The notes under the pieces were generated by a model. It saw only the letters and a program-made list of their open reading frames with translations. It was not told the origin of the DNA and did no database searches. A stretch of 64,000 nt of DNA from Nitrospirales bacterium (GTDB lineage: Bacteria > Nitrospirota > Nitrospiria > Nitrospirales > UBA8639): the NCBI GenBank assembly GCA_012270585.1, contig JAAXIB010000020.1:13187-77186 (forward strand), read 5' to 3'. A program made the translations under genes and the position numbers. Positions 32,185 to 54,345 of this stretch are shown here, one piece after another (positions within the stretch are counted from its first letter, which is position 1; each line of letters starts with the position of its first letter).

Positions 32185-32274
32185 GGAGAGGTGCGAGAGT
32201 GGCCGAATCGGCGTGCCTGGAGAGCACGTGTGCTGGCAACGGCACCGTGGGTTCGAATCCCACCCTCTCCGCCA
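32185..32274 (+). tRNA. tRNA-Ser (anticodon GGA)
   Basis: GGAGAGGTGCGAGAGTGGCCGAATCGGCGTGCCTGGAGAGCACG...GGTTCGAATCCCACCCTCTCCGCCA. Anticodon loop CTGGAGA, long variable arm, encoded CCA. Confidence 0.85.
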
Positions 32275-32296
32275 CCACGTCGAAAGCTGTACTATA
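32261..32296. repeat. left copy of the 35-36 nt direct repeat (att-like): tRNA-Ser 3' end plus 22 nt downstream
   Basis: CACCCTCTCCGCCACCACGTCGAAAGCTGTACTATA. It recurs at 54310-54345 with 3 mismatches and no gaps. Confidence 0.65.
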
Positions 32297-32541
32297 CGGT
32301 ATGGCTTCCCGTGAAGCCCCACGTGGGCAAGGGGATTTCGTCACTACAGCGTGGAGGGAGCCTAGCAACGCCCCGATCTGTTCGAGCGACGGCGGTCGGT
32401 GATGCAAAAGTGGTCCACCGATGTGCCACGTGCCGACGTGATCCCGTTGCACGGATGATTCTGACCTACCCGTCTTCTTTCCCGGCCTAGATACTCTTGC
32501 TTCCCGCCCCCCCCTTGGACGCTCGCCAAACCACTCACGGC

Positions 32542-32781
32542 TTAGCCCGTCTTTTCACAAATCAGCAACCGTTCATCGGCTTTCATAGGCCCAAAAGCCA
32601 CCCATCTCCCCTCTTTGACCGAATAACAAAACGAGCAGGTTCGATCCTCAAAGGGAGAGAGCCCCATCAACCAATCGGAGGAAAATCCGGATTGATATTC
32701 CAGAGGCAAAAAGGCGGCAAAGGATGAAACCACTCCCGCTTGGCGTGCCGGGGGTTTGCCTTCCGGGAGTTGTTCGGTCAT
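32542..32781 (-). CDS. hypothetical protein (79 aa)
   Basis: ORF whose start overlaps the upstream stop by 4 nt (32778-32781), suggesting coupling. No family recognised. Confidence 0.35.
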   Translation of the reverse strand: MTEQLPEGKPPARQAGVVSSFAAFLPLEYQSGFSSDWLMGLSPFEDRTCSFCYSVKEGRWVAFGPMKADERLLICEKTG

Positions 32782-33461
32782 CCGACCCCGCCTCCCGTTT
32801 CTGCGACCCCCGCTTGATGCAGGCCCCGCACCGTCTCGGCCAGCCGGTAAATGGTGTGCGCCGTAATATCCCGGAACGACAACAAGGCATCTTCATGGCC
32901 GGCCTGAGCACATAGAGCCATCGTATAGCAAGAGGTCCCCCCTCGGACGATTTTCAGTGTGAGATTGGCTTGGTGGCAATGAACTCCGACAAATAACCCG
33001 ACATCGATCCGATTATGCCAGATGGTTAAGTTGGGATGATTGGGATTAATCTCCACCTCCGGATTAATCTTGGGGTATTTGGGCCGGTAATCAGGCATAG
33101 GGATCAACATCGCCCGTTGGTGGGGCATCACGCAGGACTTAATCGTCTCATAGAGATGGCGTACCGCCCTGGCTTTTTGAGCGGCAGCCTCATTCCATGC
33201 CCAGAGCACCAAGGGGCCAGGAAAGATCGTCGGCACCTTGGCCAGCAGGAACTGTCGCGCTGCCTCTTCAAGGGCCGTCTCCTGGGATACCAGATGCCCA
33301 TAAAGAATGGCCTGCCCGGGGTCCGGAAGCCGTACTCCCATGTTGGCGGCAGCCGGAGAAAGGAAATGCTCGGGGCCCGGACGCACTTCATAGGATGCTT
33401 TCATTAATCCACTCCGCTCCTGGTTATCCACACGATTGACATGGCTCGGTGATGCCATCAA
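32778..33461 (-). CDS. hypothetical protein (about 210-227 aa)
   Basis: Well-behaved ORF (…LLAKVPTIFPGPLVLWAWNEAAAQKA…). I cannot assign a family with confidence. The start may be the internal MKASYEV.... Confidence 0.45.
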   Translation of the reverse strand: MMASPSHVNRVDNQERSGLMKASYEVRPGPEHFLSPAAANMGVRLPDPGQAILYGHLVSQETALEEAARQFLLAKVPTIFPGPLVLWAWNEAAAQKARAVRHLYETIKSCVMPHQRAMLIPMPDYRPKYPKINPEVEINPNHPNLTIWHNRIDVGLFVGVHCHQANLTLKIVRGGTSCYTMALCAQAGHEDALLSFRDITAHTIYRLAETVRGLHQAGVAETGGGVG

Positions 33462-33701
33462 TCACATCTCTCACCTGGGCCACGCCGCAACGTTCCAGCA
33501 CGACAACTTCAATATGATACATCCAGTTGACGGCGGATTATTCTTTCCAGCCCCGCAGGTCGCAAGACTTCTTCAATCAAATGTCGATTCCTCCATTTGA
33601 ATAATCAGATTTTACAATGCACCGTCATCCTCTATGAATGACGTATCCGATCAAATCACACCAATCGCATCGCCCTTGTTCCCCTTATTCGAAAGACTTC
33701 C

Positions 33702-52390: not shown

Positions 52391-53361
52391 TAAACGAGGC
52401 ACGATCGAAATCCTTCGGTCAGTCGGACGCGATCGAGGTTGCGGCCGATGAACACCATTTGGTTCCCTCTCGGCTCCGTGGCCCGCCACGGCCGATCCGG
52501 GCGACCGTCGAACAACATATGCACCCCCTGAAACACGAAGCGCTCATCTTGTCCCTTCACATTCAAAATCCCTTTCATGCGAAAAATATCGGTGCCCATC
52601 CCCGACAAGACCTCCCGCAGCCAATCATTGACTTTGGCCTCGTCCACCTGTCCGGTCTCGGCAATCGACACGGAGTAGACCGACGGATCATGCTCATGCG
52701 CTTCCTCGCCTAAAAAGTTCGGATCGATTTCCAGTTTCCGGCTCAGGTCAAACGCCCCCACATTCAACAACCGTTCGATTTCCAACCGGGCATCACGGGT
52801 CCGGTAGATTTGGGCCATGGCATTGATGGCCCGAACACGGCTCTCCAGCCGCTCCACTTTCCCTTCGTCCACCAGATCGATCTTGTTCAGAAGAATGACA
52901 TCCGCAAAGGCAATTTGTTCCTTGGCCTCTGGACTGGTGTCCAGGTGTTCCCAGATATGCTTGGCATCCACCACCGTCACAATGGCATCCAACATCAACC
53001 GGCGCTTCATGTCATCATCGACGAAAAAGGTCTGTGCGACGGGTGCCGGATCGGCCAACCCCGTGGTCTCGATAACCATATAGTCGAACCGTTCTTTTCG
53101 TTTAAGCAAATTGGAAATAATCCGGATCAGGTCTCCGCGAACGGTACAACAGATGCACCCATTGTTCATTTCAAAGATTTCTTCGTCCGCTCCTACCACC
53201 AGTTGATTATCAATTCCGACTTCACCGAATTCATTCACAATCACCGCCACCCGTTTCCCATGCTCGGTGGTCAGAATACGATTCAACAAGGTTGTTTTGC
53301 CCGCACCAAGAAATCCCGTCAATACAGTGACCGGGACTGGAGCTTGCTCTTCGACTTTCAT
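52390..53361 (-). CDS. COG0523 (CobW/ZigA/YjiA-like) metallochaperone GTPase, paralog 3
   Basis: 323 aa. [25 protein letters not shown], ...[13 protein letters not shown]..., ...LLNKIDLV..., CobW_C domain. AAGGGGG RBS. Confidence 0.9.
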
Positions 53362-53375
53362 ACTTGCCCCCTTTC

Positions 53376-53438
53376 TGTTCGAACATTTTCCCAGCGCGAC
53401 CGATCCTGCTTATCCTCGCCTCAGGAATGGGCGGTCCG
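53376..53438 (-). promoter_or_regulatory. conserved hairpin element plus adjacent palindromic box, copy B (leader/promoter of the COG0523 operon)
   Basis: Core 53391-53438 on the minus strand: GGACCG-CCCAU-UCCUG-AGGCGAGGAUAAG-CAGGA-U-CGGUC, then GCGCUGGGAAAA. The perfect palindrome TGTTCGAACA (53376-53385) lies 15 nt before the ATG. Confidence 0.45.
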
Positions 53439-54309
53439 TGCGATTCCTAAAACCTCTACTCTGGGACTCCCACGGGTAATGGTGAGTCTTACCCGGACGG
53501 CGAAGCGAACATGAATCGCCTCGGAACTGAAGCAAACTGGTGAGTTAAACTTAGCCGAATATACGAAAACGGCAACGAGATTTTCATGAATGGTCCAATT
53601 GTTTCCTTGATTCTCCCCAATACGGCTATGAAGCAGTCTATTTCATTTTTTCTTCTCCTGGCTGCAAACAGGGGAATCTGTGAGCCCCGTAAGCTTCCCC
53701 GTCAAGGAGACAATTCAATTGACCAACCAGTTTCCCTGAGAAACTGCGCGGTATTTTTGGGGACAATCGGAGGAGGGCGCGACACGGAACGGGAGGGACG
53801 GGTTCACGTCGCGTGATGGGCTCCATGGACGAAGGCGGCCATTCACACCGTGACGCGGAGTGCCCCATCATCGGACTATGTTCCGACACAAATACGGGGC
53901 GACCTGTTCAAAAGTCATGGGTTCGATGGCGTGCATGACAAAAGTTTGCGATCGAAAGACGGTTTTCATGTAGCCCTTTCGATAGGAATGCTGCTACTAT
54001 GGTTGACGGCTGTGGGTCGAGAGTAGCAAAGATCCCGTATTCGTTTGGCCGACGAGACCCCACGGCCGACGACGCGCTGATCAAAAAGATTTCGGACCAC
54101 GTGTCGTGGCCACTTCAGGACCATGGACGTGATGCCCGTCCGCTGAAGTGAAATCCAGGTCTGGCAGATATAGCCTGGCCTGAGCCCCGTAGCACGGAGA
54201 CCCATCCTGCGGGGGCCGCGCCTACGGAGGTGGGAACAAACTTGGGAACACAAATTACATGGTCTGCGAAACGCTACTGTTTATAGGGTTTCGCGCATCA
54301 TTGAAAGAA

Positions 54310-54345
54310 CACCCTCTCCACCATAACGTCGAAAGCTGTACTATA
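54310..54345. repeat. right copy of the att-like direct repeat (partial tRNA-Ser 3' end)
   Basis: CACCCTCTCCACCATAACGTCGAAAGCTGTACTATA; 33/36 identical to 32261-32296. Confidence 0.65.

Follow-up and report, generated by a model that had tools for sequence, protein, structure and literature searches.

Islands that tyrosine integrases insert into tRNA genes, such as the P4/CP4-57-like islands with their AlpA-type regulators, enter at the 3′ end of the gene. One end of such an island then has the intact tRNA, the other a direct repeat made of the displaced 3′ fragment; relatives show empty sites, and the cargo varies. The cis-mobilizable elements (CIMEs) have att-type repeats at both ends and no genes for recombination or transfer (PMC5704250); most descriptions of them come from Streptococcus and Streptomyces, none from Nitrospirota. 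A further kind of island is known by its cargo: the zinc-responsive genomic island (ZnGI) of Mycobacterium avium ssp. paratuberculosis combines COG0523 and alternative ribosomal protein genes (PMC4298942). Here we describe an island that adds to these known kinds. It occupies positions 32297-54309 of a 64-kb stretch of DNA from a Nitrospirales bacterium (contig JAAXIB010000020.1; the whole stretch is called the window below). Very probably, it arose by site-specific recombination at the 3′ end of a tRNA-Ser(GGA) gene, is now immobilized in the manner of a CIME and carries a zinc module. The recombinase was most probably a tyrosine integrase.

The locus shares with P4/CP4-57-like islands all the features named above, including an AlpA-family gene, which is present here in related elements. 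It differs from them in that neither the window nor the examined occupied sites yielded an integrase, that its composition does not deviate from that of the flanks, and that alpA of the related elements lies at the tRNA-distal end, beside an arm of ~190 nt. With att-type repeats and a conserved arm at its ends and no recombination or transfer genes, the island falls within the definition of a CIME (PMC5704250), and tandem core arrays at the related loci L103, L107 and L129 are consistent with accretion as in that class. It differs from described CIMEs in that no helper integrative and conjugative element or integrative and mobilizable element was identified here; by analogy, mobilization in cis may be conceivable. 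As in the ZnGI and in Zur-regulon paralog clusters, COG0523 genes accompany alternative S14, S18 and L33 genes and metal transporters on a lineage-specific island. The present island is smaller (22 kb versus ~90 kb), has neither a Fur-family gene nor recognizable Zur boxes, carries an L33 copy with the Cys motif, and adds HemB, HisI, PyrC, MoaB, WD40, DUF3386 and MerR proteins and a metallothionein-like peptide. Moreover, it is bounded by tRNA-derived repeats, whereas PMC4298942 mentions neither a tRNA nor an integrase.

A repeat of the tRNA-Ser 3′ end bounds the island

The tRNA-Ser(GGA) gene is intact on the plus strand (ARAGORN; Rfam RF00005, 51.7 bits) and was the only match of Rfam across the island, at gathering thresholds or at E≤1. 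The 36-mer CACCCTCTCCGCCACCACGTCGAAAGCTGTACTATA at 32261-32296 consists of the last 14 nt of this gene and the next 22 nt. Its second copy, with three mismatches and no gaps (33 of 36 positions equal), is present only at 54310-54345. None of 100 dinucleotide-preserving shuffles yielded a second match, and no third copy was found in the window even when up to 12 mismatches were allowed. Weak similarity around the repeat reaches 44 nt at 86% identity (repeat family D7). The mismatches, at positions 11, 15 and 16, are clustered round the CCA end, and the distal 20 nt are identical; position 11 is the discriminator base of the tRNA, which corrects an earlier sequence-only reading of this DNA. That reading had described the gapless repeat with three mismatches, taken it for the attL/attR signature of integration into a tRNA gene, and raised the concern that it might be dispersed. 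The repeat was reproduced by our searches, and it is not dispersed: the window holds two copies only, and in the examined loci the combination of tRNA fragment and arm occurs solely at island ends. Island DNA starts past 32296 and leaves the target tRNA whole. At the right copy, the similarity to the tRNA starts sharply at 54310, and upstream of this position the tRNA body is untraceable.

The site is empty or differently occupied in relatives

The island lies between core genes, with clpX, clpP, tig, tRNA-Leu and a 271-aa open reading frame (ORF) on the left and YCII, ffs, dnaX, ybaB and recR on the right. The sequence of the window is matched by ENA contig ERZ27298222:k141_954426. We collected closer relatives as a graded series via homologs of the 271-aa left-flank protein (identities to this protein are given below in brackets). 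L110 (94%) and L105 (85%) are empty: in both, YCII-ffs-dnaX comes directly after tRNA-Ser and the tRNA end is present once, as the sequence-only reading had expected of uninterrupted sites. A short junction is also found in more distant genomes, where tRNA-Ser lies 90-300 bp upstream of ffs-dnaX in 7 of the 7 Nitrospira loci among the matches listed (DnaX ~52% identical). L086 and L087, whose contigs break off at the tRNA end, were not counted as empty sites, because conserved tRNAs branch assembly graphs.

The right copy of the repeat in the window and all DNA to the right of it are colinear with the empty sites (tRNA 3′ end, native downstream sequence, YCII). Therefore, the right copy is the native tRNA end in a displaced position, which is what insertion into a tRNA gene would predict. 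Taken together, the empty sites, the colinear right copy and an arm restricted to island ends support the attL/attR interpretation.

Other relatives carry DNA at this position. L103 (93%; ENA ERZ18545484 ptg000859c) has the same island in a 9.7-kb version, L107 (87%) an island containing a methyltransferase, L106 (78%) a type I restriction-modification system with HEPN/MNT and Fic genes, and L112 (74%) an NmeDI-like remnant. In L109 and L111, whose flank protein is the same as that of L110, tRNA-Ser is followed by a different sequence and then the contig end. As the content of related loci thus ranges from nothing to zinc, restriction-modification or other genes, the tRNA-Ser site is a hypervariable hot spot, polymorphic even among near-identical strains (L110 versus L109 and L111). 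It offers a clear comparative case of entire adaptive modules coming and going at a single tRNA gene in a lineage of nitrite oxidizers, with zinc-homeostasis genes in some close relatives, restriction-modification systems in others and nothing in the rest.

In L106, the type I restriction-modification island (11037-20151) stands in place of both YCII and ffs. Rfam found no signal recognition particle RNA across the 20.8-kb locus; therefore, the essential ffs gene must sit elsewhere in that genome.

The core of the site

In the empty site of L110 (1707-1755), the T-arm and acceptor strand of the tRNA form, together with an inverted copy, a near-perfect 20-9-20 palindrome. Its 20-nt arms are 90% complementary and are separated by a 9-nt spacer, and the DNA hairpin has a predicted energy of −18.1 kcal/mol (z=−3.5). 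The inverted version of the T-arm persists in the window at 54386-54400. The core site of a recombinase, in its simple form, is laid out in this way. All three mismatches between the repeat copies of the window lie inside the 9-nt spacer, with a chance of ~(9/36)^3, or ~0.016, if independent changes are assumed; this test of clustering was picked post hoc, after the data had been seen.

Ordinary tyrosine integrases use this tRNA end. At least 120 viral contigs in IMG/VR contain the exact 23-nt tRNA-Ser end, and of the seven ORFs tested beside bare fragments, six encode PF00589 integrases. Therefore, the tRNA-Ser end is a genuine integrase target.

Tandem modules of ~205 bp adjoin tRNA-Ser or the right end of islands in close relatives and in distant Nitrospira (L103:11066-11410, L107:11048-11480, L129:8945-9365, L003:15-420 and L006:3901-4300). 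Each module comprises a copy of the tRNA-Ser 3′ end, ~60 nt, an inverted T-arm copy and GC-rich hairpins. Such arrays fit repeated recombination at the site.

A conserved arm and the loss of mobility genes

The right copy is adjoined by an arm of ~190 nt that islands of unrelated cargo have in common (mean identity 84%, alignment A2) and that is missing from empty sites. A metagenome search with the tRNA core and the adjoining island-side arm as one sequence gave five true homologs; the same search in IMG/VR returned two chance matches only. In L127, four other tRNA genes stand in an array after arm and core, a different chromosomal context, which argues that the tRNA-Ser end itself is targeted.

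In five of the related loci (L117, L127, L124, L129 and L130), two genes come after the arm: an AlpA-family gene of 68-75 aa (PF05930, E=1.4e-14) and a gene of 257-276 aa, homologs of which are often assigned to PF13814 (Replic_Relax). The window and L103 keep the arm only, without either gene. Hence the suggestion of the sequence-only reading that the island is immobilized gains a concrete basis, as related elements have both genes beside the arm and the window has lost them. The structure model of the 276-aa protein (predicted local distance difference test score 87) shows a MarR-like winged helix and a domain with weak restriction-endonuclease-like matches (template modelling score ~0.27), and a sequence search of the PDB gave no match. 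Neither a tyrosine nor a serine recombinase is suggested by this model. A longer frame of 342-355 aa beside the arm in L117 and L127 was rejected as the antisense of the real 273-276-aa gene.

The pair of alpA and Replic_Relax-like genes is present in multiple copies in some genomes. In L129 and L130 (ENA ERZ25068511 ctg61272 and ERZ25069580 ctg105688), it lies amid dense islands of defence and toxin-antitoxin genes (TIR, PD-(D/E)xK, MmeI-type, GmrSD, RelE, ParDE, PIN and others).

The missing integrase and excisionase of the sequence-only reading remained missing. Six-frame pieces of both island ends gave no recombinase remnant against Pfam at E≤10, and neither PF00589 nor any other recombinase, and no excisionase, was matched anywhere in the 64-kb window. 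We also considered a Tn7-like or CRISPR-associated transposon with the repeat as a homing spacer, since elements of this type are located downstream of tRNA genes and paralogous 'ATPases' are present on the island. This was ruled out: the paralogous 'ATPases' are COG0523 GTPases, and there are no transposition genes.

From these findings, we propose the following course of events. The incoming element would have brought a new tRNA 3′ end, the present left copy, and the native 3′ end, along with what lies downstream of it, would have been shifted 22 kb to the right, to become the present right copy. Strand exchange may have taken place in the spacer of the palindrome, where the copies of the window differ. 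The island has kept the arm and has lost the AlpA-type excisionase and the Replic_Relax-like gene. An att-flanked island of this kind, without a recombinase, could presumably move only with help in trans.

The cargo: a probable zinc-homeostasis gene set

All family-supported genes between the repeat copies are on the minus strand (Table 1), in agreement with the sequence-only reading, which had also noted the premature stop of the ParA-like gene, several gene fragments and a right-hand end without a credible gene. These observations hold, with a single in-frame stop in the ParA-like gene, two CobW fragments and one methionine aminopeptidase remnant as the fragments, and no credible gene at 53362-54309. 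That reading had suggested that the DNA, if an island, is decaying. This is true of the genes just named and not of most of the cargo, which is intact. Overlooked at the time, the cargo is a coherent set of genes of the zinc-homeostasis type, as judged by families and motifs.

Two of the three full-length COG0523 GTPases have the GCICC motif. The S14, S18 and L28 paralogs lack zinc-binding cysteine motifs; the primary copies of the ribosomal protein genes lie outside the window. HemB has DVALDPYSSDGHDG where a Cys-rich zinc site would be, a motif which we take to mark the Mg-dependent class of porphobilinogen synthases. The MerR gene is preceded by a promoter (TTGACT-N20-CATACT) and a perfect 7-4-7 dyad (TCCGTAC-TGAG-GTACGGA) at 45868-45885, and the 51-aa ORF that follows it is ~40% cysteine, with no Pfam match and no database family. 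Together with the ZIP importer, these genes suggest that expression and function of the cargo would be zinc-responsive: the module as a whole may keep translation and biosynthesis going at low zinc and buffer the metal otherwise. All cargo genes are missing at the tRNA-Ser locus of the empty-site relatives. As these organisms must still encode the essential functions elsewhere, the island genes are probably extra copies.

Beside the Mg-type HemB gene lies the gene for a 386-aa protein without a Pfam or NCBIfam model. Members of its family occur across phyla (Burkholderia, Pseudomonas, Nitrospinota, Acidimicrobiia and Gemmatimonadota), and the predicted fold is a tandem of ChuX/HutX-like domains in which the motifs HHxHxD and HCH are invariant. 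The island sets this widespread unnamed family in a context of zinc and tetrapyrroles, which makes its function testable. In the literature searched, we found nothing that links Nitrospira with COG0523 and zinc; the cargo of the island points to the supply of zinc as a factor in the selection of these Nitrospira-like organisms.

Alternative explanations

Several observations weigh against an integrated zinc island as outlined above. Within the DNA available, an integrase is absent from the window and from seven occupied relatives. Since no occupied version of the site has yielded one, the recombinase is inferred; up to 10 kb per side is visible at related loci, mostly on short contigs, and an integrase may sit at the unseen tRNA-proximal ends. 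The bases right after CCA (TAACG, CCACG or CAACG) vary among relatives, in native and island contexts alike, and, because of this variation and the post hoc choice of the test, the placing of the crossover within the 9-nt spacer is tentative. The compositional deviation that the sequence-only reading had proposed to look for is not there: the tetranucleotide correlation is 0.84-0.88 for island chunks and 0.86-0.92 for flank chunks, GC content is 0.57 versus 0.53-0.56, and GC content at third codon positions is within or near the flank range. As to the cargo, the L33 copy keeps CxxC...CxxC, metal ligands are retained in HisI and dihydroorotase, and the cargo is therefore not all zinc-free; a zinc-type L33 does not fit a purely zinc-sparing logic. 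Finally, the island has no Zur/Fur gene, and a search of 16 upstream regions for inverted repeats and shared k-mers found no common Zur-type operator, only the MerR dyad.

A comparison with L103 gives some insight into the history of the island. L103 lacks 13.4 kb of the window (33513-46920) and has a 151-nt piece of another cobW gene there instead; therefore, both descend from a larger cluster and have decayed in different ways. Island genes shared with L103 are more similar at four-fold degenerate sites than four flank genes (identity 0.870 versus 0.794, z=3.9), and the pattern is a mosaic, with five island genes at 0.89-0.96 and the WD40 (0.785) and cobW_A (0.787) genes at flank level. This contrast and the mosaic indicate that island DNA was exchanged between the two lineages after their split, possibly by homologous recombination. 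The whole island might even have come to this genome in that way, through the conserved flanks from an island-bearing relative; the repeats would then be inherited marks of an integration that took place earlier, in a different lineage. We regard this as possible, though rather unlikely. The four-fold identity in excess of the flanks, a mosaic typical of recombination tracts, the native-like composition, the absent integrase and a dprA gene nearby in the left flank are all in its favour. However, it leaves the origin of the repeat, the arm and the alpA module unexplained, an earlier site-specific integration would still be needed, and arm and core of L127 lie in another chromosomal context, beyond the reach of flank homology.

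The absent integrase can also be read as a property of the elements themselves, whose recombinase would then be encoded by the host or by a helper, as in Xer-exploiting elements, unless the winged-helix and nuclease-like protein acts instead. No Phage_integrase was found in the seven occupied sites or within up to 10 kb on either side of the alpA modules of L129 and L130, alpA and the 257-276-aa protein are the sole conserved mobility genes, the core is a simple 20-9-20 palindrome, and the ~205-bp modules stand in tandem in L103, L107, L129, L003 and L006. We nevertheless consider such a family improbable: the tRNA-proximal ends lie beyond the visible short contigs and may hold an integrase, the 276-aa protein offers no more than a MarR-like winged helix and weak nuclease-like matches (some of its homologs being of the relaxase type, PF13814), ordinary tyrosine integrases demonstrably use the same tRNA end, and decay to integrase-less CIMEs is documented and common (PMC5704250). 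It is just as doubtful that the tRNA-Ser(GGA)/ffs junction of these Nitrospirales is a cassette-like hot spot whose recombination system lacks a resident integrase. The palindromic core made from the T-arm of the tRNA itself, the tandem ~205-bp modules, the conserved arm of ~190 nt and the AlpA and winged-helix, nuclease-like (Replic_Relax-type) proteins as sole conserved mobility functions would suit this reading. If it were, insertion would need a recombinase acting in trans or from the host, or the nuclease-like protein itself. An ancestral native cluster of 22 kb that was lost in relatives, with the second tRNA end produced by local partial duplication of the tRNA, is very improbable. The lack of a compositional deviation and the presence of the whole or part of the cluster in several related lineages would suit it. 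Against it stand the sharp edge of tRNA similarity at 54310 without a traceable tRNA body, the conserved arm with alpA-type genes in relatives, the unrelated cargos at the same site, arm and core in another genomic context in L127, the intact palindromic core of empty sites, and the short tRNA-Ser/ffs junction in all seven Nitrospira loci among the matches listed. We therefore favour site-specific integration at the tRNA-Ser 3′ end, followed by immobilization.

Features of the locus and minor observations

Table 1. Features of the tRNA-Ser(GGA) locus and of the island, with positions in the window
Feature	Position	Strand	Basis
tRNA-Ser(GGA), intact, integration target	32185..32274	+	ARAGORN, Rfam RF00005
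Left repeat copy (attL-type): 14 nt of tRNA 3′ end and 22 nt	32261..32296	+	repeat search
Left-end non-coding DNA; 32297-32465 without L103 counterpart, shared island DNA from 32466	32297..32541	.	
79-aa ORF, function unknown, conserved in L103	32542..32781	-	
CO_dh-like protein (PF02552)	32778..33404	-	Pfam E=5.8e-36
ParA/MinD-like P-loop ATPase pseudogene, one in-frame stop after codon 50	33702..34301	-	
HisI paralog (phosphoribosyl-AMP cyclohydrolase, PRA-CH), Cys ligands kept	34390..34860	-	Pfam E=3.6e-31
HemB (porphobilinogen synthase), cysteine-free Mg-type site DVALDPYSSDGHDG	35025..36047	-	Pfam E=8.8e-127, motif
386-aa protein, unnamed family, tandem ChuX/HutX-like domains, invariant His/Cys clusters	36351..37511	-	
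CobW (COG0523) fragment	37622..37768	-	Pfam cobW E=0.0029, below family cut-off; repeat D1
204-aa ORF, function unknown	37992..38606	-	
Pyr_redox_3 flavoprotein, Cys-rich C-terminus	38895..40025	-	Pfam E=2.6e-92
Ribosomal protein L33 paralog, CxxC...CxxC present	40204..40362	-	Pfam E=5.7e-19
Ribosomal protein L28 paralog, single Cys	40384..40620	-	Pfam E=2.1e-26
COG0523 GTPase, GCICC motif and CobW_C domain	40818..42146	-	Pfam E=1.4e-56
COG0523 GTPase, degenerate metal motif CVGCS	42079..43452	-	Pfam E=5.7e-33
Ribosomal protein S18 paralog, no Cys	43497..43712	-	Pfam E=1.2e-24
Ribosomal protein S14 paralog, long form without CxxC zinc ribbon	44342..44647	-	Pfam E=7e-24, sequence
51-aa Cys-rich metallothionein-like ORF, directly downstream of MerR gene	45249..45404	-	composition and position
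MerR-family regulator, Cys-rich C-terminus	45418..45867	-	Pfam E=1.2e-16
Methionine aminopeptidase remnant, C-terminal ~65 residues only	46366..46689	-	PDB sequence search E=1.6e-18
FmdB-type zinc-ribbon protein, His-rich tail	46929..47243	-	Pfam Zn_ribbon_8 E=3.1e-07, below family cut-off
CobW C-terminal domain fragment	47230..47577	-	Pfam E=1.4e-10
Dihydroorotase (PyrC-type) paralog	47586..48779	-	NCBIfam TIGR00857 E=1.1e-122
ZIP-family metal importer	48896..49690	-	Pfam E=6.3e-34
MoaB, His-rich C-terminus	49754..50332	-	NCBIfam TIGR02667 E=6e-70
DUF3386 protein	50329..51024	-	Pfam E=5.6e-27
97-aa ORF, His-rich C-terminus	51042..51335	-	
WD40 beta-propeller protein	51335..52402	-	Pfam WD40 E=2e-29
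COG0523 GTPase, GCICC motif, first gene of right-hand run	52390..53361	-	Pfam E=2.6e-63
Non-coding spacer; alpA and Replic_Relax-like genes here in L117, L127 and L124	53362..54124	.	
Conserved element arm, ~190 nt	54125..54309	.	alignment A2
Right repeat copy (attR-type), displaced native tRNA 3′ end	54310..54345	+	repeat search, empty-site alignment
Native inverted copy of tRNA T-arm; right palindrome arm in empty sites	54386..54400	-	

Two short repeats were found within the island. One of 60 nt, 92% identical, lies at 44252-44311 and 53379-53438, directly upstream of the ORF 43854-44246 and of the first COG0523 gene, respectively. One of its five differences is a compensatory change from T-A to G-C in a small hairpin; the repeat may for this reason be a shared leader or regulatory element. 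The other, an exact repeat of 24 nt at 34299-34322 and 47575-47598, gives the ParA-like pseudogene and the CobW_C fragment alike their ribosome-binding site and ATG.

In the right flank, segments of low GC content (0.46-0.48) at 59025-60962 and 61583-62206 contain a Phd/YefM antitoxin gene and a partial PemK toxin gene. Both segments are missing from L105 and are probably separate small insertions.

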